DNA of 61,734 bases from contig JAFGKA010000213.1 in assembly GCA_016928855.1 (NCBI GenBank), positions 1-61,734 of the forward strand. The letters are read 5' to 3'. The notes under the pieces are model-generated. The model did not search any database. It saw only the letters and a program-made list of their open reading frames with translations, and was not told where the DNA came from. Positions 6,770 through 27,312 of the stretch are shown here, one piece after another; the first letter of the stretch is position 1; every line of letters begins with the position of its first letter. Source of the DNA: Phycisphaerae bacterium (GTDB lineage: Bacteria; Planctomycetota; Phycisphaerae; UBA1845; PWPN01). Made by a program: the position numbers and the translations under genes.

Positions 6770-6816
6770 GGCCCGTTCCTCCGTCCGCGTCAGTCTGCGG
6801 ACGATCTCTCCAACCG

Positions 6817-7986: not shown

Positions 7987-8154
7987 CGGTACCCCTAGCC
8001 TAATCGCGCTGTGACAGGATTTCAAGGCGAGGCCCAACACCGTCACGATGCCCAATTACACGGAACTGTATACACACAAATAAGTTGCGCGGCTGCAGGG
8101 TCGACGGGTGCCGACCGGTTTTCTTATCACGCCATGATAGGCCGAGGCGGCGGG

Positions 8155-8201
8155 CATCAGGCGCAGGCATATCCTGGACAACGCGCAACGGATCGTGTAC
8201 A
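8155..8201 (+). repeat. First 47 bp of the outer element end (interrupted by the inner element)
   Basis: 44/47 identical to 8202-8248; continues at 22234. Confidence 0.9.
8197..8201 (+). repeat. 5-bp target site duplication GTACA (left copy)
   Basis: GTACA directly abuts CATC at 8202 and recurs at 22229-22233. Confidence 0.85.
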
Positions 8202-8288
8202 CATCAGGCGCAGGCACATCGTGGACAACGCGCAACGGATCGTGGACAACGGCGGCGCAGAACATCACCGCAGGCGGTCGGATGACCG
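8202..8288 (+). repeat. Inner element end with tandem putative transposase-binding sites (GCGCA-N4/5-ATCGTGGACAA)
   Basis: ATCGTGGACAA at 8218 and 8239 (21-bp spacing); terminus CATCAGGCGCAGGCACATCGTGGAC. Confidence 0.85.
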
Positions 8289-8393
8289 TCGCGGTTCCAA
8301 AAAAATCGGAGAACCTCAACTTTTTTTCGGGGCCTCAAGCACCCCGAAAACGGCCCTTCGAAAGACCCTCAAACGGCCGTTCCGGGCCTATCC

Positions 8394-9536
8394 TCAAGCC
8401 GCGCTTCCACCGGGGCCGAGCACGGCCTCCAGGAGCTTCGCGGCTTCGACTCTCAGTACCCTGGCCTCTTCCGAGGCCGCCTCTTCTTCACCCCCAAGTT
8501 CTTCACCCCCAACCCCGCCGGCCTGGCCGTCCGGATCGTCGTCAAGGCCGTAGAGCATCGCCTTGGTGAATCCACCGTCCAGGGCTTCCGCCACGCCCAC
8601 GGACGCAGCCTGGAGCCTCTCTGCGATCGCCTCGAAGCTCTGGATGATCGCCTGGCGGATCTCGTTCGTTGTCGGCTCTTCGCGCTGTAGGATGCTCAGC
8701 GGCCCGGCCAGGTCACCCGACCGCGGGACGAACTCATCCGACGCGGCCAGCAGAAGCGAAGACTCCAGATCGGCCGTCACGACGCCGAGCCGGTCCAGCC
8801 CGTCCCGCACGGCCTCGACGATAATGTTCACGCCCCGGTCGATCGCATCCTTCCGCCTGGCCGTGCCGGCCTCGCGTGTCGCCTGCCACGTCAACTTCCG
8901 GGCCAGGGCGATGAGCCCTTCGAGCGGCTCCACGGCATCAAGCCGCGTATGACGCTGAAGCTCGGCGACAAGGGCGGCCTGAGAGTACGCTTGGTAGGCT
9001 GTGCGGCCGGCCACGTCTTGCGACATCGCCCGGATTAGCGCCTCACGGTTGCTCGGCACGGCCACGCAGGAGATCTCCACCAACTCCCAGGATGTTACGC
9101 GTCGCACACTCACCGAGCGCCCCGCGACCTGTTGCATCTCGGTCCGCCCGTCCCGGCGAAGGAAGCCGACGCTGAACGCGTTCATAAACCCACCGGCATA
9201 GAGCGCGCGATATTCCGGCCCGAGGCCGACCGGCGAAAACTCACCGCGGAACGGCAACGCTTCCTCGGTCGGTGCGATCTCCAGCACCTTGCCGATGACC
9301 GGGCTGTGCCCGCTCTCGAATCGCGGCTTGTGCATCGCCATCAGCACGGGGTTTTTCCGGTAGCTGGAGAGGTCCACGCCGCGCGGTTCCAGAATCTCAC
9401 CGTCGCGGTCGATCGTCCGCGCGTTGGCGAGTGCGCTGAACCGGCCCGAATCATCGACGCCCTTCTTGTCGATCTCGGCGAAGATGACGCCTTTCGATCC
9501 TATACCCAGGCCGTCTGGTTCCCGTACCTTTGCCAT
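8394..9536 (-). CDS. HK97-family prohead protease with long C-terminal extension
   Basis: IDRDGEILEPRG, NPVLMAMH, FSVGF, ELVEISCVAVPSN in the first ~170 aa of 380. Confidence 0.88.
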   Translation of the reverse strand: MAKVREPDGLGIGSKGVIFAEIDKKGVDDSGRFSALANARTIDRDGEILEPRGVDLSSYRKNPVLMAMHKPRFESGHSPVIGKVLEIAPTEEALPFRGEFSPVGLGPEYRALYAGGFMNAFSVGFLRRDGRTEMQQVAGRSVSVRRVTSWELVEISCVAVPSNREALIRAMSQDVAGRTAYQAYSQAALVAELQRHTRLDAVEPLEGLIALARKLTWQATREAGTARRKDAIDRGVNIIVEAVRDGLDRLGVVTADLESSLLLAASDEFVPRSGDLAGPLSILQREEPTTNEIRQAIIQSFEAIAERLQAASVGVAEALDGGFTKAMLYGLDDDPDGQAGGVGGEELGGEEEAASEEARVLRVEAAKLLEAVLGPGGSAA

Positions 9537-9539
9537 AAC

Positions 9540-11102
9540 CTACTCCCGTAGCGACTCGCCGCGCCGCTCCGGCGCCGGAGCCGGCCCGAAAAACTGGTTG
9601 CCGTGCACGTTTGTGATGTTGTTAATAATCTGCCCGGCCTCACTCGCCCGACCCGCCAAAATGGTCTCGGCGGTCGGATCGGGTAGCCCCCTTCGTGACC
9701 ACGGACGGCGGTAGCCACCGATCGACGCGCCGATGTCCCTCAGTTGGTCGATCTGCCCGGCGGTCTCTGGTGTTTCGCCGACCCGCCCGATCGCCTCCCC
9801 GATTCGTTCCTGTATCAGTTTGGCCTCAATGGCGGCGACTTCGTTTGCCGGCGGTCCGGAGAACACCCCCAGTTCACCTGTCGCGAGCTGCTCCTTGTAA
9901 ACCTCCTCCGCCTCCTGCCGCAGACGGGCCGCGTCAAATCGCCCTTGCATTCCACGACGAAACGCCCGACGTGCCGCATCCTGCCGGCTCTGCGCCAGCG
10001 GCGTCTTCGTGAACGCGGCCGCGTCCGCCATCGCTGCCGTCTGGTCGATGTTGCTCACCTCGGCGAACGCCGCGGCGCCGGCCGCGCGGCTACCGGCGCT
10101 GAACATCACGAACAGATCGCGAATGTCCTGCCCGCCCCCGAACGCGGCCGCCACAACGTCTTGCTGTTCGGGCGTGGTTACGCCGCCGAGAACCCCGCCG
10201 AGCAGTTGCATTCGCTTATCCAGGGTCATCGACCCGAACGCCTGGCCGCGTTCCTTTGCCGCAGCCTCCAGAAACTTGCGAGACTCCGGTGTTGGCCCGG
10301 ACGCCAGCCGCGCGAACGTCTTCATCGACGTGGCGGCCAGGCCACCTTCGGCCGCCTCCTGCCGCGCCGCCACCGCATATGCGACAGTCGTTTCCAGGTC
10401 CACACCCTGCGACAGCATCGACGTACCGCCCCGCAGCATCTGCCCGACAAACTCGCCGACCGTCTCGGCCTTGCTCATCTCGGCGCCGCGCTGAATAATC
10501 AGCGCCGCTTCCCACATGTCCCGGCCGGATGCGCTGATGATCTGGAGGAACTTGCCCGCCTCGGCCTCCGGAATCGCGCCGGCACCGACCAGCGGCGCGA
10601 ACGCATGCAGCTTTTCGAGATTCTCCCGAAGCTTCGGATTGCCCTTCCTGAGCCCCAACGAAATATCACCGCTAATCCCCAGTGACACCGCCGTCTGTAA
10701 GTCCGGCAATGCCCCGCGCTCCTGTATCTGCGTCGCAATCCGCAAGGCCCGCTGTTGGCCGGCGAGAGAGGTATCCCCTAATTGCTTGGCGAACGGAAGC
10801 ACCGTCTCAAGTGCCGTAAGCCCCTCGCGGGCGATTTCCTTCAGTGCCGCCTGCACCCGCTCAAGATGGCTAACGAGTGCGCCGATAACACCCACAATCG
10901 CCTGGATACCAACGAAGCCCGCTACAAATGCAACGGCGGCACCGCCAGCGTTCCGGAGCATCGCCCCGAGCCCGCCGGTTTTCTCTTTGGCCTTGTCGGC
11001 CTGCGTGCCGATCTGCTCCTCGGCGCCGGCCACGCCGCGGAGCTTCTGCTGCGCCTGCTCGGTCCCGTCGGCCGTTACCCGGATTTTGATTTCGTCAGGC
11101 AT
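9540..11102 (-). CDS. Short tail tape-measure-like protein
   Basis: N-terminus IKIRVTADGTEQAQQKL, hydrophobic Ala/Gly segment, Ala/Gly/Gln-rich helical body, C-terminal INNITNVHGNQFFG. Confidence 0.7.
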   Translation of the reverse strand: MPDEIKIRVTADGTEQAQQKLRGVAGAEEQIGTQADKAKEKTGGLGAMLRNAGGAAVAFVAGFVGIQAIVGVIGALVSHLERVQAALKEIAREGLTALETVLPFAKQLGDTSLAGQQRALRIATQIQERGALPDLQTAVSLGISGDISLGLRKGNPKLRENLEKLHAFAPLVGAGAIPEAEAGKFLQIISASGRDMWEAALIIQRGAEMSKAETVGEFVGQMLRGGTSMLSQGVDLETTVAYAVAARQEAAEGGLAATSMKTFARLASGPTPESRKFLEAAAKERGQAFGSMTLDKRMQLLGGVLGGVTTPEQQDVVAAAFGGGQDIRDLFVMFSAGSRAAGAAAFAEVSNIDQTAAMADAAAFTKTPLAQSRQDAARRAFRRGMQGRFDAARLRQEAEEVYKEQLATGELGVFSGPPANEVAAIEAKLIQERIGEAIGRVGETPETAGQIDQLRDIGASIGGYRRPWSRRGLPDPTAETILAGRASEAGQIINNITNVHGNQFFGPAPAPERRGESLRE

Positions 11103-11386
11103 TCTGCTCCCATCTTCTACAATTCCTGTCGCCCGGTCATCGGCCCGTGGCCGCGCTTGAACTGCGTTTCCACGCCACGAAAACGCCGTTCAAGGGCGGC
11201 CCCGGCTGGGGCAACCCTCACAAAAGGATAGCAGGCATCTGCGGGCGTTATCGCCGGCCCGGTGAGAAGCCCCGGGACTTGCCACGACCCGCTGGGCAAG
11301 CGCAGAGCCGGCCCGCTCCACGGGCTCACGTCGGCTCTGTATTTCTGATGCGTCGATCGCATGCTTTCACTTCATCACCGCGCCGA

Positions 11387-12592
11387 TCAGGAATCCGCGG
11401 TCTTCAAGCCGATGATTCCACCGGGGTTGCTCGCATCGCCGCGGCTGACGCAAACGAAGTCTTGCCTCTGTGTGGCCCTCACCGCGAGAAGATCCTGCGA
11501 GAAGTATGCATCCGTGCTGCGCGCGATCTGGAGATCCCTGCGGACGCCGAGCAGGCAGCTCTTGCGGAAATCGCCGAACAGCGCGCACACCTGCGTGTTC
11601 GCTTCTGTGGAGGGCATCTTCGAACTGAAGTGGACCGGGTAGCCCAAAAACCTAGTCTGGCCGCCGATCACACCTAAAGTTATCTCTTGGGCCGTGACAC
11701 CCCCCGCCGCAAAGGCGAGCTTTTGCATCACTTCGTAAAAGAACTTGCGGTGCACGAGCCACCGCGCGTTGGCGTCGGCAAAATTCGGCAGCAGCCCTAT
11801 GACCTCCTGAAAATCGGCGAGCGTTAACTCACTGTACGCGTTGCCGCTGCCGGTTACCTTGCTGCCGGCCTGCAGCGCGGCGCGGACGCCGAGCACCTCC
11901 AGGTACGTGCTCGATCCGTCCCCATTGATGGCACTGTCGTCCATCTGCTCTGACATCGCGGTCGCGACCTCGTCTACGAGATACTCGCCAACACCGATGA
12001 CAGCGTCTTCGCTGAGTTCGCTCGAAATGGCCGTCAGCACTCCCCATTTCCGGGCGACCAGGTTGACGGCCTGAAGTGTCGGCGTGCTCGCCGTGATCGC
12101 GTTCCCCTCGCCGGGTTGGTAGACCGTCAGACCGGCCGACGCGACGGGCCAGGCTTGTGAATCGTGGCTCATCGGGACGACGCGGGCGAGTTGTCGCATG
12201 ACCCCGTAGGTATCCTGCAACCGAAGCACTTCGGCTGCCATATCCCGCGGGACCAGGATGCCGCCGCCGGCCTCCGTGCCCTCAACCAGCGTCTTGACAT
12301 CGACACCGTACTCATCCGCGGCCTTCCGGGCCGCATCGCGTTTCCCGGCGAGCGCCATCGCGAGCACCCCGAACCCCTCCGCGGCTCGCCTGCTCATCAG
12401 CTTGCCGCCGTAGTCGCTCGGGATGCTCCGGATCTGCTCCCGCCAGGCGGTATACTGCTTTTCCTGCTCACGCTTGACGACGTCCAACTCATCGGCGAAC
12501 TTTCCGAGGATATCGTCATTCTTGCCGAGCTTGTCCGCCACAGCCTTGAGGCTGTGTTGCACCTCGCCCAGGGCACTATTCATCGTACTCAT
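11387..12592 (-). CDS. HK97-family major capsid protein
   Basis: Coiled-coil N-terminus, EGTEAGGGILVP, GEG, ISSELSED, AINGDG, FLGYPV, LFGDF, VRATQRQD; GAGAGG RBS before ATG at 12592. Confidence 0.93.
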   Translation of the reverse strand: MSTMNSALGEVQHSLKAVADKLGKNDDILGKFADELDVVKREQEKQYTAWREQIRSIPSDYGGKLMSRRAAEGFGVLAMALAGKRDAARKAADEYGVDVKTLVEGTEAGGGILVPRDMAAEVLRLQDTYGVMRQLARVVPMSHDSQAWPVASAGLTVYQPGEGNAITASTPTLQAVNLVARKWGVLTAISSELSEDAVIGVGEYLVDEVATAMSEQMDDSAINGDGSSTYLEVLGVRAALQAGSKVTGSGNAYSELTLADFQEVIGLLPNFADANARWLVHRKFFYEVMQKLAFAAGGVTAQEITLGVIGGQTRFLGYPVHFSSKMPSTEANTQVCALFGDFRKSCLLGVRRDLQIARSTDAYFSQDLLAVRATQRQDFVCVSRGDASNPGGIIGLKTADS

Positions 12593-12751
12593 TGTGTACA
12601 CCTCTCGCGGGCCGATGCCCGCGTCGTTCACTGTTCCAACCGCCGGCGTTTTTCAATCGGGCCACCGGCCCCGCCCGTCGTGCCCTCTTGTCTCGGTCTC
12701 GCGTATGCGCTGTCGCCGGCGAAGGCTGTCCGGCCGCGTGACGCTTGAGAC

Positions 12752-13174
12752 CTACTGCGACGGCTCCTCCGGCAATCGCAGAGCTGCATCCATCACCAGC
12801 CACGCCGCTTCCGCGACGCGTTCGGCGTCCGCCCCGGGGACCATCCGCCCAAGAGCTTCCACCACTTCGACGAAACCGCCGCCGCTACCATCGCGAATCG
12901 CGACGAAGCACGCATCGAGCAGTGGGCCCACCTCGACACCCAACAGATCCGCGGCGACCAAGACCGGTCGCACATAAACGTAGCGCCGTCGCAAGTCCCG
13001 CAGCTTCGCGTGCCCGCGGCTGATGATCCGCGGGATCAACCGCCGTAGTCGTGTCGCCTTGGCGTCGTCGATGCCGTCGAGTTCGGCGAGCCACGCCGGC
13101 GCCTTCGCCTCGAACGTTTCGAGTTCGTGCGCAAACTGGACCGCACTGGCGTTGACTATCGCGAGCTCACTCAT
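12752..13174 (-). CDS. Hypothetical protein upstream of capsid gene
   Basis: Co-oriented ORF MSELAIVNAS..., helical composition; no recognisable motif. Confidence 0.6.
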   Translation of the reverse strand: MSELAIVNASAVQFAHELETFEAKAPAWLAELDGIDDAKATRLRRLIPRIISRGHAKLRDLRRRYVYVRPVLVAADLLGVEVGPLLDACFVAIRDGSGGGFVEVVEALGRMVPGADAERVAEAAWLVMDAALRLPEEPSQ

Positions 13175-13325
13175 CGCACTGGACGCCCTCAAAACAAAGC
13201 GCGGCCAGGCGGACCCGTCCGGGCCAACCAAGCCGCACTGTTATCGGAATCCGTTCCTTCATATGATGGCATCCTGCCCACCGGGCCGCCGTCCCTGGCG
13301 GCCGCACCCGCCGCGATCGCGGCGC

Positions 13326-13694
13326 CTACTTCATCTTCGCCCGCCGCTTCTTTGCGGTCGCGTCCTTCGTCGCGTACCGTTGCCGCTCACGCCTCGCCTG
13401 CCGTTCCACCACGCCCACGCCGATGGCGTCCAGGTCGGCGCGGATCTCGGCGGCCAGGCCGATGACCGCCTTCCGCTCCGCGTCGTGGAGCTGCCCGCTT
13501 GCCAGCGTGTGCACGACCAGGCGCAGCCGCGCCGCACAGTCGGCTAACGCGTAGAACACGCCGGCCGCCAGGTCGTCCTTCATCCAATCGAGTGATAGAC
13601 TGTATTTCGAGACCTGCCCGAACCGCACCGGCGGTCCTTCGCCCTCGATTTCCTCCAGCGTCGGTATCGCCGTCTTGATTCCTGTTCCGTACAT
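13326..13694 (-). CDS. Hypothetical protein with basic C-terminus
   Basis: 122 aa, AAGGTG upstream, co-oriented with the operon. Confidence 0.65.
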   Translation of the reverse strand: MYGTGIKTAIPTLEEIEGEGPPVRFGQVSKYSLSLDWMKDDLAAGVFYALADCAARLRLVVHTLASGQLHDAERKAVIGLAAEIRADLDAIGVGVVERQARRERQRYATKDATAKKRRAKMK

Positions 13695-13762
13695 AGAACA
13701 CCTTCCCGTTCAATCACCGCACTTCCGCCATCAGGCGGGTTCGTCGGACTCCTCGGTCGCCA

Positions 13763-14218
13763 TTAGTCGGCGGCCGAGTCCTCGGTAAACGCAACACCCA
13801 TCTGTGCGGCCTTGCGACTTTGATATGACCGCCACTTCGCGTAGTTGTAGACAGCCGCACGTCCACCCCGACAATCGCCGCTCAGATGAAAGACTTCCGT
13901 CTTGCCAAACTTCGTAGGAATTGCCGCAACGCCGTAGTGCTTATCGAGCGTGGCGTAGCACTCCAGACAAATAAACGCCCTCCGGTGCTGGCTGTTTCTG
14001 TGATACTGAACGTAGGCCCGGAAGAACTCATCTTGAAGGTGTTCCGGGATGGCGTTCAAATCCGGAAACTTGTTCTTGATCCGCTCGAATTCGCGTTCAG
14101 GATCGACCCGCATCCGCACGGAGCGAGCCATGGGGGCTCGGCACCCGCACGCCTCACATTCGATCGTATTCTTCTTGCTCATGAATTTTGTCTCACTTGC
14201 GTGGTTCGGGGTTTTCAT
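13763..14218 (-). CDS. Hypothetical protein with two CxxC motifs (putative Zn-binding)
   Basis: CEAC and CLEC about 60 aa apart. Confidence 0.65.
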   Translation of the reverse strand: MKTPNHASETKFMSKKNTIECEACGCRAPMARSVRMRVDPEREFERIKNKFPDLNAIPEHLQDEFFRAYVQYHRNSQHRRAFICLECYATLDKHYGVAAIPTKFGKTEVFHLSGDCRGGRAAVYNYAKWRSYQSRKAAQMGVAFTEDSAAD

Positions 14219-14248
14219 TCACCTCAGCGCGCCGCCCGTTTTCACCCT

Positions 14249-14452
14249 TCATGCGGCACCGCCTGGCGACTCGTCGTAATCCGGTGAAAGGCCTTCGAGC
14301 ATATCCATAAGCGACCGCATCCCCTGCCACTTCATGCGCCGGGTGATCTCGGCCACGATCGTTGCCCGCCAGATCAACTCATCCAAAACGCCATCAAGAT
14401 CCTCGGCGGTCCCTTTCTTTAGTTCCGCCAACATTCGTTCGCGCGTTGTCAT
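14249..14452 (-). CDS. Small hypothetical protein, paralog of 14449-14763
   Basis: Shares the EDLDxVxxELxxRAxIxAxIT...M..L...E...PDxD pattern; ATGA overlap with its neighbour. Confidence 0.7.
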   Translation of the reverse strand: MTTRERMLAELKKGTAEDLDGVLDELIWRATIVAEITRRMKWQGMRSLMDMLEGLSPDYDESPGGAA

Positions 14453-14763
14453 GATTGGATGACCTCCGCCTTCTGCTGTTGGCCTTCACCTGCATCGCCG
14501 CCGCTCGGGTCGAGAAGCTCACCGACCTCTTCATCATCCAGATCCGGTACGGTCGATTCCTGGAGGTTCTTCAGTATCTTCATGTCCCAGTAATGCAGTT
14601 GCCCTGTGATCCTCGCGATGATTCTCGCCCGCGCCCGCAACTCGCCGCAGACGGCATCAAGGTCTTCCTCGCTGGCACACTTCAGCAGCGTGTCACAGAC
14701 GATATCGAAGTCCTCGCCCTTCGCGCCCCTCAACAGCGCTAGTAGTTCCTTCTTTGTTACCAT
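14449..14763 (-). CDS. Small acidic hypothetical protein, paralog of 14249-14452
   Basis: AGGAG RBS; MVTKKELLALL... Confidence 0.7.
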   Translation of the reverse strand: MVTKKELLALLRGAKGEDFDIVCDTLLKCASEEDLDAVCGELRARARIIARITGQLHYWDMKILKNLQESTVPDLDDEEVGELLDPSGGDAGEGQQQKAEVIQS

Positions 14764-14944
14764 GATCCCGTACTCCTGTGCCTGTGAAATGGAGCCCGGC
14801 CCGCCGGCAACCCGCAAGGGGGGATCGCGGGGGCAGCCGTAGTGGTCGGCCGCCGGCCGGCAGGGCCGGGCACGCTTGGATACGTTACGGCCACTACCCG
14901 CAACGCCATTGGAAACCCATTCGAACTGTTGTTACTTCGCGTTT

Positions 14945-16219
14945 TCACGCCGTCCTCGGGGCATACAACTGCTGCACCTGGCGGTCAGTCTCGGCCGTCA
15001 CATCGTCGCCCATCGCCAGCCGGTTCGCCTGGCGGACCATCTCCAGAGTGATGAGCGGCTTTCCCGGATTCGCAATCATCGCGATCTCGAAAACACTGAT
15101 GGCATACCGAAGCCCGCCGCCCTCGACGCCGTCGCCGAGCGCCGTCAGATTCGCCAGGTCGGTCAGGAACTTGATCGCGCCGCGTTCAATCCGCACGGTA
15201 TACTTCCCCAACATCTCGGCGACCTCCTCGACACTGAAAAGCCGCTCGCCATCTCGCCCACCGGTCTTCTGACTGCGTGCGAGCAAGTCCCGTTGGATGC
15301 AGATCCGGCCGACGATACTGCCGCCGATCCGCTCATCCCGCTGCGACCGTTTGAGCTTCGCAACCAGCAGCGGCCGGCCCGCCAGAACCACCGGACAGCC
15401 TGTCGCGTCATGGATCTGGCGAATTGCGTTGAGCGTGTCCGCCGGCAACGCGTCCGCCTCGTCCGCGACGATCAGCCGCTTCGAGCCGGCCAGCCTTGCG
15501 ACGATCGCAGAGAAGCCGGCGGCAAGCGTGCACACCCCTTCATTGTGGGATGCCCCCGCCACGCGGCCCGGCAGTGCCGAACCCGTGCGGATGCACCGAA
15601 GCAATGTGCGGTAGAAATGCAGCGGGGCCTTGCAGGAGTCGTTGATCTCGACGTACAGCCCGCTCGGGAAATCCTTGGCCATCACCGCGCGGAGGGCGAG
15701 CGTTTTGCCGATGCCCGACGGCCCGTAAACGACACCCATCCCGCCGCGAAGATCGACCGTCTTGACGATCGCGAACACCTCGCGCGCTACACCCGTCGTG
15801 ACGAACTCGCCCTTGGCCGGCGCGTTGGCCCGCGCGGCCTCACGGGCCAGTGCCGCATCGAGCGAGCGCAACACATCATCCCGCCGGTTGCGTTCACCCT
15901 GCCGCCCTGAATCGCCCTGCAACGCCATGCCCAGCACGTACACAGACACGCCGCATAGCCGCGCCAGATCCACCCGGGACGCGCCAGTCGCCCGCTGATA
16001 GACTTCAGCGCGGCCGACAATCTCGGCGCGGATTTCCTCGGTCAACTCGGCCCCGGGTTTGACGCGCGGCGTGCTTTCGACGCGCGCGGCCCGCTCGATA
16101 CCATCCATGGCGTCCGGTGGCGCATCCGGCGGCATGGCCGGCGCGAATGGATCAGTAACCCAGTCGGATACATGTCCGCCCGGGGGAATCGTCGGCTTGT
16201 TGTGTGGTGTGTCCGTCAT
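14945..16219 (-). CDS. MuB-like AAA+ transposition ATPase with N-terminal HTH
   Basis: VYGPSGIGKT (Walker A), LIVADEAD (Walker B), IRQIHD, PVVLAG; HTH SRVDLARLCGVS; overlaps the transposase stop. Confidence 0.9.
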   Translation of the reverse strand: MTDTPHNKPTIPPGGHVSDWVTDPFAPAMPPDAPPDAMDGIERAARVESTPRVKPGAELTEEIRAEIVGRAEVYQRATGASRVDLARLCGVSVYVLGMALQGDSGRQGERNRRDDVLRSLDAALAREAARANAPAKGEFVTTGVAREVFAIVKTVDLRGGMGVVYGPSGIGKTLALRAVMAKDFPSGLYVEINDSCKAPLHFYRTLLRCIRTGSALPGRVAGASHNEGVCTLAAGFSAIVARLAGSKRLIVADEADALPADTLNAIRQIHDATGCPVVLAGRPLLVAKLKRSQRDERIGGSIVGRICIQRDLLARSQKTGGRDGERLFSVEEVAEMLGKYTVRIERGAIKFLTDLANLTALGDGVEGGGLRYAISVFEIAMIANPGKPLITLEMVRQANRLAMGDDVTAETDRQVQQLYAPRTA

Positions 16220-18141
16220 CCTGCATCAGCCTCCGGGAAGCTTGCTGTCTCCTGGCTCCAGCTTTTCGCTTCCTCCTCATCCTCGACGGTGTCGCGAAAT
16301 AGGTCCGCGAAGCTCAGCGGCACCGCGGCTTCATCGGTGCGCTCGACGCGCTGCGCATCAATCGCACCCGCCAGGTCATCCAACGTCAGCGCCTCATCAG
16401 GCCCGGTTCCGCACCCGGCCGGCTCTGAGCCCGACACACGAAACTGACACATCGCGTCCGCCCAGTCGCTCTTCAGCGGCCGTATCGTGCGCGTCGGCGC
16501 AGCGTCATCGGTGCCGGTCGCGGCGATCAGGCCATTCATCGCGTCATGTTCGCGCTGACGTTTGGCGGCGCGATTCCGCGCATCAATGGCCGCTTCGGTA
16601 ACAGTTTGCATCGCGGCGCGCGTGCCGCCGTCCTGGACCGCGCTGGCCAGCCGGCGGGCCTGTTTCTTGGCTCGCATTCCCTTGGCGATGTCATCACGTG
16701 ATGCACGTGCAAACGCCAGGCGGTTATTCGTCGCCCGGCAGATCGGCTTGCCTTCAAGATCGCACACAACAACATACGATGCATCTTCGGGATGCACGCG
16801 AAGCAATACTTCCTTGCCTTGCAAGAGCTGAAGCCTGGCTTCTCCGAGCCCATACTCGATGCCGTCGTGGCGAACGCCGAAACGCGTAACCTTGACCGGC
16901 CGGCTTACGCGCATCAGCAAGAGGTCCATGAGCCCCTCAGGCACAACGACGCGCGGAATCGGGTTCGACGCGTTGAACACGTCGATCGGGGCACGTCCGT
17001 TCATGTCCACGCCGCGGTGTGGTGTGCGGTGATACGCGTCAATGTATTTCGTGAAGCCATCCCGATACCGGGCGATTGTCGGACACCGCTCGGGATGTGC
17101 TTTCGCAACCCTGTAGGCGGCCTGGAATCGCGCGTCCTTCTTGCCTCCGCAATACGTTTCGTAGGTGGCACCGTACTGGCCTTCGAGCGTTCCAAACCAT
17201 CGTTCAATCAGCTTCGAATCAGGGTTGAATGGAAGCGCAAAGCTAACTTCGGAGCCGACGCCGCCGAAGACGGAACGGCAGTAGTCCTCATCTTCGATCA
17301 GCCGTTTCGTGGTCGGCCGCCCGCCGCTGATTCCCTTGGCGCGGTAGGGCTTGCCGTTGTCGATGATGACCTCGGCCGGTGGCCCCCACTTCTCAATACC
17401 GTCGCGGAAGGTTAAGAGTACGGCGTCTTGGTTCTCGGTTTCGCCGATCGTCCAACCCGTAACGATGCGGCTTCGCAGGTCGATGAACGCGCCCAGCCGC
17501 GGCCGAATGATTTCCGGGTCCGCATCGCTGCGCCGGCAAAAGACATCGACGATATGGAAGTCGCCAACCCAGCACTGATTCGCGCGGTATTCCGTGTAGT
17601 CGCGAGAAGGAACCCGCACGCCGTGCTTACGATCCCATTCCTCTTCGCCGAGCCGGTACCGGTTCGCTTCGAATTCGGAAATCTCACGTCTGACTTTCGC
17701 TTGAACCGTCCGCAGCGAAGGCCACGCCCAACCCTGGCGCTCTGCCTCCGCGGCAACAAGCTGGCAACACAAGGCCACGGTCCGTTGCTGTCTCGTCAGC
17801 CAGAATTTCTTGAACAGATTCCACGCCTCCGGCGAACATGATTCCCGCCGCGTATCGCGATTCGCTCGCCGCCGGCCATCAACAAGACCGAGCACGTCGC
17901 CGGCCTCAATCAGGCGCGCCCAGTCGTGCAGTTTCGAGCGCCCGACCCCGTGCATCCCGCAGAACACCCGGTCGGCCTCGCCCCGCGTTGCCCCACGGCG
18001 CACCAAATCACAGCGCATCTGCTTCCACTCGGACACAATCCGCGTCTTGCGCCCGACCTCAAGCCGCTGTTCATCCGACAACCCCGCAAGCGCCGCCCGT
18101 TGCGGATCGACGGCAATCTCTCGGCGCGCCGCAAGTGCCAT
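16216..18141 (-). CDS. MuA-like DDE transposase
   Basis: ANQCWVGDFH (D), VIIDNGKPY (D), SKLIERWFGTLE (E), YHRTPH, Mu C-terminal beta-barrel-like VTRFGVRHDGIEY; two N-terminal HTH-like regions. Confidence 0.93.
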   Translation of the reverse strand: MALAARREIAVDPQRAALAGLSDEQRLEVGRKTRIVSEWKQMRCDLVRRGATRGEADRVFCGMHGVGRSKLHDWARLIEAGDVLGLVDGRRRANRDTRRESCSPEAWNLFKKFWLTRQQRTVALCCQLVAAEAERQGWAWPSLRTVQAKVRREISEFEANRYRLGEEEWDRKHGVRVPSRDYTEYRANQCWVGDFHIVDVFCRRSDADPEIIRPRLGAFIDLRSRIVTGWTIGETENQDAVLLTFRDGIEKWGPPAEVIIDNGKPYRAKGISGGRPTTKRLIEDEDYCRSVFGGVGSEVSFALPFNPDSKLIERWFGTLEGQYGATYETYCGGKKDARFQAAYRVAKAHPERCPTIARYRDGFTKYIDAYHRTPHRGVDMNGRAPIDVFNASNPIPRVVVPEGLMDLLLMRVSRPVKVTRFGVRHDGIEYGLGEARLQLLQGKEVLLRVHPEDASYVVVCDLEGKPICRATNNRLAFARASRDDIAKGMRAKKQARRLASAVQDGGTRAAMQTVTEAAIDARNRAAKRQREHDAMNGLIAATGTDDAAPTRTIRPLKSDWADAMCQFRVSGSEPAGCGTGPDEALTLDDLAGAIDAQRVERTDEAAVPLSFADLFRDTVEDEEEAKSWSQETASFPEADAG

Positions 18142-19262
18142 CAGGCCGCCCCCTTCGTCTCTGTTACTGCCCTGCCCGCTCCCTCCCCGCGGATCTCGAC
18201 GAAGAAATCAACCGGCACACCAAACGCCACGGCCATCCGGCACACGACCCCCATCGTCGGCGTGACGACACCGGCCAGCCATCGCCGCACGGCCGGCGGC
18301 GTCGTATGGACACGCTGGGCGAGCCCCTCGACCTCTAGTCCATGTTTCACCATCAGGTCAGCCACCGCCTCCCGCCGGAACACCGGCCGCGGCGGCGTTG
18401 TTTTCGGCGTCTCGGCCGCGGCCCGGCCCGTGTCAGCCGATGCCGGGCGTGTTGCGGACGCGGCCCGCACCCCTGCCGACAAAAACGCGAGTTCACCATC
18501 ATCGACTTGCCGCATCAAAATCCGTTCGGCGCGGCGGAGGATGTTGGTCTGCACCCGCTCCACCTGCTTGCGGCCGTACCCAAACCGATCGCCGATCTGC
18601 CTCGCTGGCGTAGCGTAGGCTGGCATCGTACAAAGTCGCCCGTCAAGCAGCGCGCGGCCCACTTCACGATTCAGCGGCTTGCGCATGGTGGCGATGACAT
18701 CCGCCAGCACGGCGCGCACGTGTTCAACCGCACGAAAGTAGACGTCTTCCGGAATTCCATCCGCCCGGCCTGGCCGCGAGAGCGGCCGACCACGCCGCCC
18801 GCGTCGCTGGCGAACGCCGTCGCCGACGGCCTCGGTCAGCGAAAACGACCGGCAGGCATCAGTAATCCGATCCCGCGTGCCGGCCGCAATGCCGCCGGTC
18901 CCCCGCAGAGCATGCGATACCGTGTTCGGCGAGATAACGACCGCGCGTCCATGCTCCATCCGGAACCGCCGAATCGCCCGCCGAACGCGAATCGTCGCGT
19001 AATACCCGAAGGTCATGCCCGGGTAACGGCCCTGTTCCGCCCGCCAGTCAAGAGCCGTCTCGATCAGCGCGACGACCGCCACGATGATGTAATCGTCCCG
19101 GTCATAGTATCGGCCCTCGACCCTCGACAACGCCGCATTATTGGCACTCTTAATCGCCAGCGGAACATGATCCAGAACCAGCCGCCGTTCATCGGCCGTC
19201 AGCCTTCGCTCCCCGCCGCGGCGGTTCGTCCGGACCTCAGTTTTTCGCGTTTTTATTGACAT
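18141..19262 (-). CDS. Sigma-70-like protein (regions 2 and 4) fused to a C-terminal XRE HTH
   Basis: LVLDHVPLA...DRDDYIIVAVVALIE...TFGYYATIRVRRAIRRF; ARQIGDRFGYGRKQVERV; LAQRVHTTPPAVRRWLAGVVTP...AFGVPVDFF. Confidence 0.75.
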   Translation of the reverse strand: MSIKTRKTEVRTNRRGGERRLTADERRLVLDHVPLAIKSANNAALSRVEGRYYDRDDYIIVAVVALIETALDWRAEQGRYPGMTFGYYATIRVRRAIRRFRMEHGRAVVISPNTVSHALRGTGGIAAGTRDRITDACRSFSLTEAVGDGVRQRRGRRGRPLSRPGRADGIPEDVYFRAVEHVRAVLADVIATMRKPLNREVGRALLDGRLCTMPAYATPARQIGDRFGYGRKQVERVQTNILRRAERILMRQVDDGELAFLSAGVRAASATRPASADTGRAAAETPKTTPPRPVFRREAVADLMVKHGLEVEGLAQRVHTTPPAVRRWLAGVVTPTMGVVCRMAVAFGVPVDFFVEIRGEGAGRAVTETKGAA

Positions 19263-19792
19263 TATCCGCGCTTCCGCCGACGCGCGCCGTGTGTCGTTTT
19301 TAAGGCATCATCCGCGCCAGCCACCGGCGAGACCACGCCATCGCGTACCCATCGACACACGTCGGCGATCTCGACCCGGCCGCGATGCAACCCGGCCGGA
19401 CGCCGAAGCCGCCAACGTGGCACGCCATCGCGGTCCCGTTCACACGCCGCCAGGCCAAGGTCAGTCAACAGCCGAAGCCGGATCTCGTCTGCTGGGTCGC
19501 GAGCGTATCTCACGCGTCCCCATACCCGCCGCGGCTCGCTGATTGCCCCGCGTTGAAGCCCACTATCCCCGCGCCGCAATGCTGCTCGCCGCCAACGAAA
19601 CAAGCTGCTGGCCGAGACCCGCAGCCGGGGATACTCCGCCTGAATCGCGCGCAACAACGATCCCATGGCTGCCGTGCGAGACCCCCACGGTACTCGCTGC
19701 ACTTCGTCGAGCGCGGCAACCCACGCGCGCCTCTCCTGCTCGGTCGCCTGTCGGCGGTCAGATGGTGCCGTCCTGTTGCGACGTCGGGTCAT
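19262..19792 (-). CDS. HTH DNA-binding protein resembling a Mu transposase end-binding domain
   Basis: VSASSLFRWRRAALRRGDSGL motif; overlaps both neighbours. Confidence 0.6.
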   Translation of the reverse strand: MTRRRNRTAPSDRRQATEQERRAWVAALDEVQRVPWGSRTAAMGSLLRAIQAEYPRLRVSASSLFRWRRAALRRGDSGLQRGAISEPRRVWGRVRYARDPADEIRLRLLTDLGLAACERDRDGVPRWRLRRPAGLHRGRVEIADVCRWVRDGVVSPVAGADDALKTTHGARRRKRG

Positions 19793-20058
19793 GCGGCTTC
19801 GTCCCCCGCCTGCGGCTCAACTTCTTGCTTGGCTAACACCCCGGCCTCGGCCGTTGTAGACACAATTAGTGCGGAGACTGGGACGCGCAGCGCCCGCGCC
19901 ACGCCCCGCGCGACCCGCACGCCCACCGGCCGCCCGCTGAAGACCAAAGACAATGTCGCAGGCGCGACTCCCGCCTTCGCCGCAACATCCTTCTTCAGTA
20001 GGCCGCGGCGCGTCCGAATGTCGTCAATCAATCTGGCGTTCAGCACAACCTTGGCCAT
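19789..20058 (-). CDS. Cro/Ner-position XRE HTH regulator
   Basis: RTRRGLLKKDVAAKAGVAPATLSLVFSG...VARALRVPVSALI; first gene of the leftward operon. Confidence 0.85.
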   Translation of the reverse strand: MAKVVLNARLIDDIRTRRGLLKKDVAAKAGVAPATLSLVFSGRPVGVRVARGVARALRVPVSALIVSTTAEAGVLAKQEVEPQAGDEAA

Positions 20059-20111
20059 GGCCGCCCACTGCACCCTTTGTTGTCCATACGAATAACAGCT
20101 CGTCTTTTGAG

Positions 20112-20140
20112 AAGATACAACACATCCGGCCTGGAGTCAA
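20112..20140 (-). promoter_or_regulatory. Leftward (early operon) sigma70-type promoter
   Basis: Minus strand TTGACT-17 bp-TATCTT. Confidence 0.7.
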
Positions 20141-20162
20141 CCCCAAAATCGTCTTTTGTCCA

Positions 20163-20191
20163 TTGCTTATTCATCTGGGCTGCCGTATACT
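20163..20191 (+). promoter_or_regulatory. Rightward (repressor) sigma70-type promoter
   Basis: TTGCTT-17 bp-TATACT, ending 6 bp before GTG at 20198. Confidence 0.7.
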
Positions 20192-20197
20192 GCATCC

Positions 20198-21736
20198 GTG
20201 GCCACGGACGAACAGTTATCCGCATACATGGAATCCGTGCGCAGGCAGCGGGGTCTCCCCGCTAGTGCTGTGGCCTGCCGGTCAGGCGTTTCACTTGGCC
20301 ATATCCGCAATATTGAGAGGGGCTTGCGCCATCCGAAGGCCGCGGTGCTGGCGCGAATTCTCGACGCCCTCGACGCCACGGACGTTGAGCGGGCTGAGGC
20401 CCGCCGCCTGGCGGGTATCGACCCGAATCCGTCCACATCAAAGGAAGCGCGGGCGGCAAGACGGGGGAAGTGGCAGCCCCTCACCTTCATTCTGGCAAAC
20501 GACATACTACTTCCGTGCCTGCGGCTCGATTACGCGTTCGGCGCGCGCCTTGATCTCGCGGGCAACGCCTGGGCACTGGTCCATCAAGCCCTGAAGGCCG
20601 CCGACATGGCGACGTTCGTGGACCAGACCGCCGATGTTGTATCGCCGCCGCCGGACTTGACCACACTGCTCGAATCATCGTTCGGACATGCCCCGGCGGA
20701 CCTTGTTGAGGGTCTCGAATCACTCCTGTCTGACGAGCGGTATCTCAACGAGATGAATCGGCACTCAGGTCAACCCCCGCTGGCGTGGAAACATACGATG
20801 TTGCGATCGTTGATCCTGTCGCCAGCGCCTCCCACAGGCAAGGACGCGGTTTTCCTTCGTGATGTCGTCGAAATGCTCACGTTTGACCGCAGCTTCGCCG
20901 TATGCTTCTTCCCGGCCGTCTATTGGACGGCTTGCCGCAACTGGCCGTTTGAAAAGGTTTGGATGCCATTGTCACGGGCCTCGAAATCCCTGCAAAAAGC
21001 TGTGTATGAGCGAATCCAGGCCGGTTTATCGCTCGAAGATTTCGACCGCGCGATGATCGGTCAAGGTGATCTCGGGGACGTGGTCCGCCGGGCCGAGCCC
21101 GCGAGATTCTCTCCCGATGAAATGGCCGACAGTCCAGGAAGACCTTGGTCGTGGGAGGTTGGCCGGGGATCGTGCCGGGTAACATTCAGCGGGCCGCGCC
21201 CACCGAACGATCTTGCTTTCGATCATCTCGACCGCTGCACATTCCTGGAACGGTTCCCGTATTTGAAAGTTGACCGAGAGGCCGCCGCAAAGCTCGCCCG
21301 CTCCGTTATGCTGCCGTCGTGGCAAGCATGGGTAGACCATATTATCCAACACGAACCAGCCGTCCCGGCGGACCACCCCCTGCGCTCCAAGGACCGCTTC
21401 GACGCGGTCGTTGCCGAATACCGCGACACAGAGACCCGCGAGCCGAACTATGGCGAGCTTCCGAGCCTCATTCACCGGCTGGTATCACTGAAGGCTGGCT
21501 GGGCAATGGCGGCCTTGGAGGGGTGGGCCAGCGGCGGCCTTGCAGAACCTGGCCGCCGAACGAGGATCGCCGCGATGCTTGGTTTCCGTGATGCCTGGCA
21601 AGATATCATCAGAAAACTGGAAGAGGAAACACCGCCCGGGGGCGCTGAGAAGCCGACCGCCCCGGACACACAACCGGCCAAGCGTAGGCGGCCCGGCCGC
21701 AATGCCACAAGGCCGGGAAGACGGGAGCAAGCGTGA
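20198..21736 (+). CDS. Repressor-position XRE HTH protein with large unknown C-terminal domain
   Basis: VRRQRGLPASAVACRSGVSLGHIRNIERGLRHPKAAVLARILDAL; divergent from the Cro-like gene. Start inferred. Confidence 0.8.
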   Translation: MATDEQLSAYMESVRRQRGLPASAVACRSGVSLGHIRNIERGLRHPKAAVLARILDALDATDVERAEARRLAGIDPNPSTSKEARAARRGKWQPLTFILANDILLPCLRLDYAFGARLDLAGNAWALVHQALKAADMATFVDQTADVVSPPPDLTTLLESSFGHAPADLVEGLESLLSDERYLNEMNRHSGQPPLAWKHTMLRSLILSPAPPTGKDAVFLRDVVEMLTFDRSFAVCFFPAVYWTACRNWPFEKVWMPLSRASKSLQKAVYERIQAGLSLEDFDRAMIGQGDLGDVVRRAEPARFSPDEMADSPGRPWSWEVGRGSCRVTFSGPRPPNDLAFDHLDRCTFLERFPYLKVDREAAAKLARSVMLPSWQAWVDHIIQHEPAVPADHPLRSKDRFDAVVAEYRDTETREPNYGELPSLIHRLVSLKAGWAMAALEGWASGGLAEPGRRTRIAAMLGFRDAWQDIIRKLEEETPPGGAEKPTAPDTQPAKRRRPGRNATRPGRREQA

Positions 21737-22011
21737 CCATAGAGCCCGCCCCGGACCGCCCGCCCCGGCCACCGGCCGACGCTCGAGCCGCCGACGGAAG
21801 GGCGGTAAGCCGTGAGCCCACGGTGCCCTGCCGACCAGGAGCCACCACAGAGAGGAATACACCACCGCGATCGGCGCCGCCTCCGCGTCTCGGCCACCCG
21901 GCAGACTGGACGCCGAAAAGGCCCCTCCGTCCCGGGTTCTCCACAGACCCGAGCCGCATTGTCAAGAAGTTTGGCACACCAAATGCTAGGGGTAAAAAGC
22001 CCCTTGAATGG

Positions 22012-22228
22012 CCGTCCAAGATGCGCTGCGCGTTTTCGGCCCTATCGCCGCAACTCCAGCCCCCGCCAACAATTACGCTTGTCCACGATAGGCCCGATTT
22101 CTGCGCACACCCCCGATTTTGACGATTTATCCACGATAGGCGCCGCGGCCCATAACCCCAGCCCCAGCAAGCATTTAACCCCGTTTTTCTGCCCTTTTTA
22201 TTCGTCCACGGTTTTCCTGCGCTCGATG
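22012..22228 (-). repeat. Inner element repressor-proximal end with spaced putative transposase-binding sites
   Basis: Minus-strand ACCGTGGACGA (22202-22212), ATCGTGGATAA (22127-22137), ATCGTGGACAA (22079-22089), GCGCAGCGCATCTTGGACGG (22012-22031); terminus CATCGAGCGCAGGAAAACCGTGGAC. Confidence 0.85.
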
Positions 22229-22233
22229 GTACA
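22229..22233 (+). repeat. 5-bp target site duplication GTACA (right copy)
   Basis: Directly follows GATG at 22228. Confidence 0.85.
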
Positions 22234-22273
22234 GCGGCGGCGCAGAACATCGCCGCAGGCGGTCGATTGACCG
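22234..22273 (+). repeat. Continuation of the interrupted outer element end
   Basis: 36/40 identical to 8249-8288. Confidence 0.9.
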
Positions 22274-22297
22274 AAATTGTATCTGCAAGATGCATCG

Positions 22298-23248
22298 TCA
22301 TCCGAACGGCATCTTGACATGCTTGCGGAGGAACGCGACATTCTGCGCCGTCGCTTCGACAACCTGTGCGCGGTTCTTGTGATCAGATTCGAAAACGTAC
22401 CACCCGTCGTAGCCGATCTCGTTCAGCACCTCCAAGGCAGCCCGCCACTCGACCAGCCCCGATTCACTAAGAAGCCGGTCTCCGTTCTTGACGTGCACTT
22501 GGCAGATTCGATCCTTGCCCAACAGCCTGATACCGGGTATGGCCTCGGCTGGATGACCGTACTGCGCCATGTTGTAAGGATCGTAATAGACCTTGACGCT
22601 AGGGTGAGCAACCTCATCGAGGAGCTTCTTGTTGTCAGCGGGGCTCAGCGAGTTCTCGAGGCCAAGCGTTACTCCCGCATCGGCGGCCTTTGAAGCCACA
22701 CGCTGGAAAACTTGGACCACCGGCCCGTAGGACGATTCGTCGGCCATGTCGGGGGCGTCGTTCCGGAAGAAGGCGACCAAGACCACGCCGGATCCCAGGC
22801 TCTCGGCAACCCGGATCGCCTTCGTCAGATTGCTCTCGGCTGTTGGGGATTGCATGATCGACACGCCACTGTCCCACACACCGGCCAGCGAAGGAATCAT
22901 CATGCCCCATCGATTGGCTTCTCGCTTGTAGCGACGCACCGCATCCGGGTCCCACAGATTGGGCTTCCCGCTTGCGACCTGGAGTTCTATGCCCAGCAAG
23001 CCAGGGATCTGTCGGGCCAGCTTGAAGACGTTGAAATCGCCAACCATCCTCATGCTGGCGGCGCGGTGCCCGATTTTCAAAGGAATCCGAGTATTCTGTT
23101 CCGCTGGTGCGGCCTCCGCCGGGCGAGCCGACGGCGTCATGAAACTGGCTCCAACGGCCGCCGCTCCCCAGGATGCGAGCTTGGCAAACTGCCGTCGAGA
23201 CATGCCAACTCGGGAAGACGGTCGCGACCTCTCGGTCTTGGTTCTCAT
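22298..23248 (-). CDS. Tat-exported sugar phosphate isomerase/epimerase family protein
   Basis: SRRQFAK; LGLEN, YYDPYN, VHVKN, YDGWYVFE. Confidence 0.8.
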   Translation of the reverse strand: MRTKTERSRPSSRVGMSRRQFAKLASWGAAAVGASFMTPSARPAEAAPAEQNTRIPLKIGHRAASMRMVGDFNVFKLARQIPGLLGIELQVASGKPNLWDPDAVRRYKREANRWGMMIPSLAGVWDSGVSIMQSPTAESNLTKAIRVAESLGSGVVLVAFFRNDAPDMADESSYGPVVQVFQRVASKAADAGVTLGLENSLSPADNKKLLDEVAHPSVKVYYDPYNMAQYGHPAEAIPGIRLLGKDRICQVHVKNGDRLLSESGLVEWRAALEVLNEIGYDGWYVFESDHKNRAQVVEATAQNVAFLRKHVKMPFG

Positions 23249-23310
23249 CGCCGTTACCTCACGTTGGCTGGTTCGAGACTGCTCCAGCCTGTCGATTCCG
23301 AGGTCCTGTT

Positions 23311-24525: not shown

Positions 24526-24589
24526 TGTGCTACCTCCTGGTTTGCTATTGCGGTCACAAGCGATAATGAGGCGAGACCGGCCTTGAACG

Positions 24590-25492: not shown

Positions 25493-25526
25493 GCACTACC
25501 TCCAGCCATCCAAACGCTCATAGGAG

Positions 25527-27301: not shown

Positions 27302-27312
27302 ATACCTGCACC

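Follow-up and report, generated by a model that had tools for sequence, protein, structure and literature searches.

The stretch of DNA analysed here, hereafter the window, is 61,734 nt long, has a G+C content of 64% with no tRNA genes, and comes from contig C322 (JAFGKA010000213.1) of a Phycisphaerae bacterium represented by a metagenome-assembled genome (MAG) of 606 contigs and 5.28 Mb that is 91.6% complete. Positions 8202–22228 of the window are a complete, compact Mu-family transposable element with exact ends, 14,027 bp in length and present in a single copy in the MAG. It combines a Mu-type transposition core with genes for a phage capsid protein, a prohead protease and a tape-measure-family protein. 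Altogether 16–17 open reading frames (ORFs) were called, using a simple GC3-based script that is unreliable below approximately 55% GC, where the longest ORFs were taken. The long coding-like ORFs are all on the minus strand except for the repressor-like gene, which is on the plus strand. All ORFs are open with no visible frameshift, and in five gene pairs start and stop overlap (14449–14452, 16216–16219, 18141, 19262 and 19789–19792).

The termini of the element are inverted repeats matching at 20 of the first 25 nt (counted by hand), and they are flanked by a 5-bp target-site duplication, GTACA (left copy 8197–8201, right copy 22229–22233). The protease-side end (8202–8290, plus strand) contains, next to the terminal repeat, two copies of the 11-nt motif ATCGTGGACAA (8218–8228 and 8239–8249), and the repressor-side end (22010–22228, minus strand) has its terminal repeat, two copies of the motif (22079–22089 and 22127–22137) and some weaker ones. 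When up to one mismatch is allowed, the motif occurs seven times in the window against 1.18 expected, a count that none of 100 shuffles reached, and five of the seven copies are terminal: two at each end of the element and one in an adjacent, older end copy. The sequence into which the element inserted was itself an older copy of its left end. Its first half (8155–8201, plus strand) is 94% identical to 8202–8248 and its second half (22234–22273, plus strand, aligned over 22231–22273) is 91% identical to 8246–8288. Since the empty site rebuilt with a single GTACA aligns to the intact left end without gaps, both the boundaries and the length of the duplication, 5 bp, are firmly established. As the target was a copy of the same end, the lineage of the element had previously resided at, or transposed into, this locus. 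The termini so fixed read 5'-CA...TG-3' (8202–8203 and 22227–22228), whereas in Mu and most DDE elements they read 5'-TG...CA-3'.

On the repressor side, a 526-aa (amino acid) repressor-like protein with an N-terminal helix-turn-helix (HTH) domain (20156–21736, plus strand; HTH_31, E = 1.4e-10) is encoded divergently from the transposition operon. The coding signal of its gene spans the entire length, an Atlas look-up gives the HTH domain only (the Atlas model being of low confidence), and a homolog (4e-29) occupies the same divergent position in a related element, G495:C41. The remaining genes are on the minus strand. The first of them encodes a 94-aa HTH protein in the position of Ner or Cro (19789–20073; HTH_3, 8.8e-7), homologs of which are found at the equivalent position in three relatives (G464, G476 and G454). 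Next are a 176-aa ORF with no assigned function (19262–19792) and a 373-aa regulator-like protein with a C-terminal HTH_3 domain (18141–19262), in which the match to a sigma factor is weak (E = 0.006). The 641-aa MuA-family DDE transposase (16216–18141; DDE_2, HTH_Tnp_Mu_2 and Mu-transpos_C; phrog_310, 1.5e-85) has the Pfam set PF02914, PF09039 and PF09299, which includes the Mu I-gamma DNA-binding subdomain, and its closest counterparts in phage records are the transposases of BalMu-1 (27% identity) and Mu (23%). Downstream of it, with a 4-bp overlap, is the gene for a 424-aa MuB-like AAA+ transposition ATPase (14945–16219; AAA_22, 2.5e-15; phrog_296, 6.8e-37). No integrase domain was found in the ORFs with Pfam and PHROGs, and integration is by MuA and MuB instead.

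The operon continues with five small ORFs of 159, 122, 151, 67 and 122 aa (12752–14817, minus strand), none of which has a Pfam or PHROG match at E ≤ 0.01; the 159-aa product resembles hypothetical clusters only (Atlas look-up). The HK97-type major capsid protein of 414 aa (11387–12631, minus strand; PF05065, 5.6e-39; phrog_10, 1.4e-40) has a delta-like N-terminal region, and the database form begins 13 codons further on. It retains all 27 invariant columns of an 11-sequence alignment, and its root-to-tip length in the capsid tree is not unusual. The following 81-aa ORF (11117–11362, minus strand) is a doubtful gene with a weak coding signal, and no homology to the small genes found after the capsid gene in relatives was shown. 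The gene for the 520-aa tape-measure-family protein (9540–11102, minus strand) is separated by only 3 bp from that of the 380-aa S78-type prohead serine protease (8394–9536, minus strand; Pfam S78, 5.7e-5; phrog_80, 6e-19). The protease carries a C-terminal extension of approximately 110–130 aa and keeps 10 of 10 invariant columns. H69, S122, E154 and N163 are invariant in seven aligned proteases, H69 and S122 being the conserved catalytic His and Ser of the S78 family.

The 520-aa protein itself matches neither Pfam nor PHROG families, and tblastn against 50,697 phage records gave no match. A hydrophobic segment is visible in its sequence. Among 1.84 billion representatives there are 100 relatives at E ≤ 1e-3, mostly 510–570 aa long and aligning end to end. 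When 45 members of the family were compared to curated tape-measure families, three matched PhageMin_Tail and one TMP_2, all weakly (best E = 0.001), and a profile search of the PDB with the family gave no meaningful match. The name is therefore based on the genomic context of the family in full prophages. In prophage L054, the terminase gene (459 aa) is followed by those of a portal with a fused F-like domain (791 aa), the protease and the capsid; then come six small genes, one of them for a neck protein, a member of the family (551 aa) and four tail-sized genes. In two IMG/VR contigs (L111 and L167) a family member is also found at the tape-measure position. Judged by its position in these three full prophages, the 520-aa protein belongs to a tape-measure family.

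None of the ORFs of the element belongs to a terminase, portal, connector, tube, tail-tip or lysis family according to Pfam and PHROGs, and tblastn with the terminase and portal of its relatives against the element contig gave no match, whereas the same approach finds both proteins in all three full-size elements described below. Among the unassigned proteins, just three reach the size of a portal or a large terminase subunit, namely the 520-aa protein, the HTH protein of 373 aa and the repressor-like one. The genes that would make a complete phage, i.e., those for terminase, portal, connectors, tail and lysis, are thus missing between the ends. By gene content, the element resembles satellites in general, having no set of genes for an autonomous particle and keeping genes that could act on the morphogenesis of a helper. 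An initial annotation, made from the letters of the sequence alone, had proposed a Mu-type transposon with its own capsid, tape measure and protease, with exact boundaries and overlapping, unbroken genes. All of this agrees with both ends and the rebuilt target, with the overlap positions, and with the Pfam and PHROG families and prophage contexts given above. The gene order it gave is likewise correct for repressor, HTH protein, MuA, MuB, capsid, tape measure and protease, while its sigma factor has dwindled to a weak match and its 14 ORFs are too few. The supposed absence of a packaging motor is supported in that no terminase or portal is detectable, and it is less certain for a small terminase subunit.

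In order to place the element among its relatives, 279 genomes of the host order were searched with a MuA profile and a capsid profile, and every contig with both was inspected. MuA was found in 84 of the genomes and the capsid protein in 32, and the two occurred on the same contig in 11 cases, distributed over 10 genomes. Three of these loci (G495:C20, G512:C7 and G507:C89) are full-size, with terminase and portal genes between the regulatory region and the capsid gene. The remaining eight have no terminase or portal homolog and are compact; they comprise the window element, G586, G604 and, in family f109, the five loci G467:C1, G476:C24, G454:C22, G464:C204 and G495:C41. The distance between MuA and capsid genes is 3.6–5.7 kb in the compact loci as against 11.8–13.5 kb in the full-size ones. 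Capsid and tape-measure-like proteins are encoded in all eight compact loci and the protease in seven of them, next to MuA and MuB (only MuA in G604, where the contig ends). These loci span three host families and share 30–60% protein identity, and the retained virion ORFs are full-length. In the f109 loci the cassette consists of a protein of approximately 300 aa, the capsid protein, a gene of approximately 150 aa and a tape-measure-like protein of 407–633 aa. The first of these belongs to the protease family of the element (hhalign 97.5%, E = 6.6e-12); three of the tape-measure-like proteins match the profile at E values from 5e-11 to 7e-6 and the other two are linked through these. No terminase or portal homolog was found in the 30.6–40 kb examined around the f109 loci. 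On one strand, G604:C106 carries genes for a repressor-like protein, a 262-aa protein, protease, capsid, a 90-aa protein, tape measure and proteins of 188 and 100 aa, and on the other strand regulators and MuA. In G586:C79 one strand encodes a 455-aa protein, the capsid and the tape measure, and the opposite strand carries five genes together with MuA and MuB; p455 of L055 shows no homology to the protease. Neither G586 (99% complete) nor G604 has a homolog of the L054 portal anywhere in the genome.

Among the compact loci there are six different gene orders. The three virion genes are arranged as capsid, tape measure, protease in the window, as protease, capsid, tape measure in G476, G454 and G464, and as capsid, protease, tape measure in G495:C41, and the tape-measure gene of G467 is upstream of MuA. 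In the full relatives the order is terminase, portal, protease, capsid, six genes, tape measure and four tail genes. The order in the window cannot be reached from this by deletions alone and is therefore no simple deletion. As for the extent of the relatives, G476 has a 14-nt motif twice at one end and three times, inverted, at the other, 13.2 kb apart, with no visible target duplication despite these clear end repeats. The others measure approximately 10.7–13 kb by gene span. At G495:C41 the ends are represented by a three-copy motif only, and no ends or duplications were found for G454, G464 and G467.

The closest capsid relative is only 44–46% identical, pattern scans for the capsid in genome contigs and viral contigs yielded no close relatives, and a scan of viral contigs with a narrower MuA alignment yielded nothing. 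In 80 IMG/VR contigs that encode related capsids, there is no case of a nearby MuA or of a capsid gene adjoining a tape-measure gene. The tape-measure family was matched in 13 of the 279 genomes of the order and in 8 of the 401 of a class sample, a search that is biased in that each hit carries this gene by construction; the hits include the full prophages L054 and L084 as well as L057 and L059, which look full, and the compact loci of G586 and G604. Two near-equal partial copies of the family, on 2.8-kb contigs (C198 and C491) of a single MAG of the host family (G016), suggest that this genome holds a multi-copy element.

The layouts of other relatives help to understand the full-size phages. 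In the complete genome G889 (L085, C1 4148000–4167999, and C1 4174969–4178459), one arm comprises MuA, MuB, GemA, Gam, a tube-like gene and the tape measure, followed by HEPN/NTase-like and AAA (DUF4143) genes, and the other arm contains a terminase gene and a portal gene, the latter interrupted by a TAA stop. In L064–L066 terminase and portal are divergent from MuA. Together these layouts indicate that the full-size relatives are Mu-like siphophages with split arms, and sequence relationships point to such phages as the evolutionary source of the compact elements. With a source of this kind, the compact elements can be read either as defective derivatives or as satellites.

The transposases nearest to that of the element (41–55% identity) include those of L016, L017, L018 and L074, in which a Mu gpT-type capsid gene (PF10124, 4e-47; phrog_371) adjoins MuA and MuB. 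The L018 unit, from the repressor to the last phage-like gene, is approximately 8 kb, with neither terminase nor portal, and no protease, terminase or portal was found in the approximately 8-kb units of this type (L016, L017, L018 and L074). The alpha-helical p436 protein of these elements has no more than a motif at the N-terminus in common with the tape-measure family (hhalign 50.7% across 45 columns at the N-terminus, weak), its gene in L018 may be frameshifted, and the ends and duplications of L017 and L018 were not found. The coordinates noted for these elements are 5558–6550 in L016, 5356–6372 and 9527–10837 in L017, 9775–11755 in L018 and 3673–4638 in L074. In the MuA tree, the window element groups with the gpT-type elements and four short metagenome contigs lacking context (100% support), and all four members of this clade whose context is known are compact. 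The remaining compact elements are intermixed with full-size phages. The label compact changes three times on this tree, a quick one from which the partial MuA of L056 and the N-terminal MuA fragment of G464 were omitted, and at least two of the changes are forced. At least two are also required on the capsid tree, another quick tree with a hand-chosen 22 of 80 IMG/VR loci and 12 of 64 database proteins. At least two transitions in both trees mean that compact forms arose more than once, and the recurrent 11–14-kb elements of Planctomycetales thus descend repeatedly from full-size Mu-like siphophages; judging from the gpT-type units, compact forms arose even with two different capsid families. 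The initial annotation had named as fatal to its proposal a one-off deletion whose closest relatives are full prophages, or the lack of a second example, and had suggested a co-location search. Neither objection applies here: eight of the 11 contigs with MuA and capsid are compact, the nearest MuA relatives of known context are compact too, and seven further genomes have MuA, capsid and tape measure together.

In comparison with known systems, the element is most similar to Mu and Mu-like phages. It shares with them the MuA gene followed by a MuB-like ATPase, the divergent repressor and small HTH regulator, multiple subterminal repeats at both inverted ends and the 5-bp duplication, so that its description as a Mu-type transposon is sound, and in relatives of the same MuA family Gam, GemA and terminase are found along with a portal that is fused to an F-like domain. 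Unlike Mu, it is 14 kb rather than approximately 37–40 kb in size, carries no genes for terminase, portal, connectors, tube, tail tip or lysis, has its structural genes in a non-phage order, encodes a transposase only 23% identical to that of Mu and ends in CA...TG. The split-arm prophages (L064–L066, G495:C20, G512:C7, G507:C89 and G889) have the same MuA/MuB, capsid, protease and tape-measure families, but in them terminase and portal separate the capsid from the regulatory region. Laboratory mini-Mu derivatives, which consist of Mu ends with A and B, are transposition-proficient and are packaged only with a helper Mu. The present elements resemble them in the Mu-type ends and A/B genes, whereas mini-Mu is engineered and without virion genes and the elements are natural, recurrent and equipped with a specific virion cassette.

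Known satellites replicate by their own replicases after excision. P4, SaPI/PICI and PLE redirect the capsid protein of the helper by means of scaffolds (Sid, CpmAB and TcaP). With these the element shares, as a functional analogy only, small size and a helper-dependent design affecting the size of the capsid, but it would supply capsid protein and protease itself, and theirs is integration by site-specific recombinases. Phage-inducible chromosomal islands of the capsid-forming type (cfPICIs) have a tyrosine recombinase, a primase-replicase, a portal, head-tail connectors and a small terminase, and no tail gene. The element is like them in size, in its own HK97-type capsid and in missing most phage genes, and unlike them in using MuA/MuB and in having a tape-measure gene; neither portal nor connectors were detected among its ORFs, and of a small terminase, which the small ORFs could conceal, there was likewise no trace. 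The median cfPICI has 14 kb and 19 proteins according to a census of satellites (PMC10085698). In this census, chromosomal integration of satellites is usually by a tyrosine recombinase (PMC10085698), which the element does not have, and the words transposase and tape measure occur zero times each in the main text (PMC10085698). In agreement with the initial annotation, a search of open-access papers and of passages of this census found no description of a transposition-based satellite or of a Mu-like element with this gene set. The compact elements are real, recurrent and probably new.

What these elements do can be approached from what they have kept. A cassette of shell and ruler, convergently retained on a transposition core of uniform 11–14-kb size, is most economically explained by a satellite lifestyle, and a transposition-based, helper-dependent phage satellite is the best inference, which we hold with slightly more confidence than doubt. 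According to it, MuA and MuB would move the element by DDE transposition, leaving the 5-bp duplication, under the control of the divergent HTH repressor and the Ner-like protein. The tightly packed operon downstream of MuB encodes only those virion parts that set dimensions: the capsid protein with its delta-like N-terminus, the protease with its scaffold-like tail and a full-length tape-measure-family protein. Upon de-repression the element would be amplified by transposition, and a related full-size phage would then provide the head and tail machinery for its packaging, the shell proteins of the element giving a capsid sized for approximately 14 kb. The tape measure may have been kept to escape tape-measure-targeted exclusion by resident helpers, which is one possibility. 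The anatomy, the scar of mobility, the loss of genes and the recurrence in permuted order are observed; packaging, helper dependence, the redirection of capsid size and the reason for keeping the tape measure are what we infer. In its general form, the proposal is a class of Planctomycetales satellites with Mu-type transposition that have repeatedly shed genes down to capsid, protease/scaffold and tape measure, and that package by the headful into small, self-built capsids using the motor, portal and tail of a helper; this we put forward tentatively, with rather more doubt than confidence. In a bolder variant, the partner could be a conserved terminase-portal-protease module of the host family and not always an infecting phage.

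A module of that kind is present in the MAG. At a contig edge (C224:1–3775, L170) there are genes for a terminase (507 aa), a portal (435 aa) and a head protease. Of 35 genomes of the host family, 31 have one copy of the portal (phrog_113, 1.5e-97), with identities of 58–74%, and the cluster of G026 and G027 consists of terminase and portal followed by proteins of 711, 451, 175 and 845 aa. It looks like a vertically kept head module, domesticated or similar to a gene transfer agent, rather than a mobile helper. A search of open-access papers for gene transfer agents in Planctomycetota gave nothing evidently relevant. That a module of the C224 type serves the compact elements is pure speculation.

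Several observations weigh against the satellite interpretation. In the 91.6%-complete MAG there is neither a further MuA, capsid or tape-measure relative nor a portal of the L054 type, and only one of the eight genomes with compact elements (G495) has a co-resident full-size Mu-like phage with the same capsid type, the two being 46% identical in the capsid and 36% in MuA. Encapsidation and dependence on a helper are both deduced from genes, and one of the five small ORFs could encode a small terminase. The tape-measure-like proteins of f109 match the profile modestly, that of G476 mainly at its N-terminus. The contigs of G586 and G604 end in or just past MuA/MuB, where further genes are possible. 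MuA is in two ORFs in G464 and MuB in two ORFs in G454, so some compact copies may be immobile. In G889, an arm with early genes, tube and tape measure has no capsid gene, from which it follows that odd arrangements also arise in ordinary prophages. Finally, there is no relative close enough for the ratio of nonsynonymous to synonymous substitutions (dN/dS).

Much of this would be expected if the compact elements were a defective prophage lineage, that is, still-transposing derivatives of full-size Mu-like phages formed by deletion and rearrangement, natural counterparts of mini-Mu whose virion genes have no role and have not yet decayed. The scatter of compact elements among full-size phages in both the capsid and the MuA tree, with at least two transitions, suits this explanation, as do the window element being a singleton above 50% identity, the lack of a helper in the MAG, the split MuA or MuB of two compact relatives and the unusual partial layout of G889. 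It is at odds with the retention of the same genes at full length: capsid and tape measure are kept in 8 of 8 and the protease in 7 of 8 compact loci, although these come from three host families and their proteins share only 30–60% identity, a divergence at which neutral decay should have broken the genes. The permuted gene order is not collinear with a deletion, the genes are tightly coupled, and catalytic and invariant residues are kept. We consider a defective lineage unlikely, though it is the main rival of the satellite interpretation.

It has also to be asked whether the retained proteins are made for a particle at all. As an interference or defence cassette, the element would remain unpackaged, and its capsid, protease and tape-measure variants would poison the assembly or entry of related phages, to the benefit of both host and element. 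The retained proteins are indeed those that co-assemble with the parts of a related phage, and full-size relatives with compatible families infect the same order. In addition, the element may be transcribed in an uninduced community sample: in two RNA libraries of the source study, short contigs with at most one differing letter match the capsid gene (11862–12014), the small ORFs (12718–12870, 13514–13686 and 14558–14756), MuA (16378–16608 and 16147–16345), the 3' end of the protease gene (8377–8548) and a gene in the flank (23235–23488). These contigs, which also speak weakly for the satellite interpretation, are a weak hint of transcription at most, as DNA carry-over is possible, and the parts without RNA cover are uninformative. 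On the other hand, a full-length tape measure and a protease with intact catalytic residues exceed the needs of a decoy, the uniform unit size of 11–14 kb suggests a packaging constraint, and no known defence family turned up, although no search aimed at such families was made. An interference cassette is accordingly improbable in our view.

A cargo transposon of the Tn7/Tn5053/Tn552 type that has captured three phage genes is more improbable still. Such transposons commonly share the rve-like core, Mu-transpos_C, AAA_22 and the 5-bp duplication, but the Mu I-gamma subdomain, the match of the transposase to phage families, the divergent layout of repressor and Ner-like protein, and the Gam, GemA, terminase and portal genes of the MuA-family relatives all point to a phage origin, while no other family is reported for the ORFs of the element and no target-selector or resolvase domain was seen in them with Pfam and PHROGs. 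That the contig is a chimeric assembly artefact, conceivable for a MAG of 606 contigs, is hardly credible given the matching ends, the duplication and the reconstructable target site, the same architecture in seven other genomes, and a single 29.2-kb contig of run X1 that covers 6500–23500 with no differences and an even depth of approximately 32 (X1 may be the source of the assembly, in which case this agreement is not independent). Pieces shorter than 60 nt in X1, X2, X7 and X13, and four X1 joints with sides of 20–23 nt, were regarded as noise.

The surroundings of the element hold further traces of its ends. In run X2, from another study, a 7.2-kb contig (approximately 93% identical, depth 16) fits 6833–8155 and diverges exactly at 8155, where the old end copy starts, and a 257-nt contig (depth 5, 94.5% identity) spans the junction of old and new ends (8166–8421); insertion polymorphism in a related population is possible. 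Some 14 kb downstream of the element, at 36515–36655, there is a degenerate copy of the repressor-side end in matching orientation, 75% identical over 109 nt (blastn 1.7e-11). Between this copy and the solo left-end copy at 8155 lies the bracketed block 22,234–36,655, which is 14.4 kb long, has a lower G+C content (0.59–0.63) and carries genes of sugar catabolism (TIM-barrel isomerases, GFO/IDH/MocA oxidoreductases, a fucose-isomerase-like protein, ROK, Fe-ADH, a split transketolase and two TauE). None of these sugar-block genes is found within 18 kb upstream of the URO-D-like ortholog in any of four relatives, and the 5-mers flanking the block do not match each other. The block may be cargo bounded by Mu-type ends, a natural mini-Mu, or the scar of old rearrangements. 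The idea that relatives have the regulator at 6817–8055 next to the URO-D-like gene at 36.65 kb was rejected, since the regulator belongs to a multi-copy paralog family and no contig with both was seen. Elsewhere in the window, coding repeats of 76–89 nt, which translate to Asp/Gly-rich repeats, are common to a DUF4185 gene (4909–6405; repeats at 6201–6389) and a distant gene on the opposite strand (60309–60506), and a 140-nt repeat occurs four times near the end of the window (59070–60010).

Should the compact elements be defective prophages, they would document a convergent path of decay, and the Mu-like phages whose structural arms are split would still constitute a family of interest. Should they be satellites with a Mu core, they would never excise, would multiply through replicative transposition and, in doing so, would take flanking host DNA into particles, by which genes could be transferred and genomes rearranged along a new route. 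Since capsid, protease and tape measure are the parts recurrently kept, the question arises which virion parts a parasite must own in order to determine particle size and entry, the tape measure as a satellite gene finding no mention in the main text of PMC10085698. If true, the satellite interpretation would also bring phage satellites to a phylum, Planctomycetota, whose phage biology is almost non-existent.

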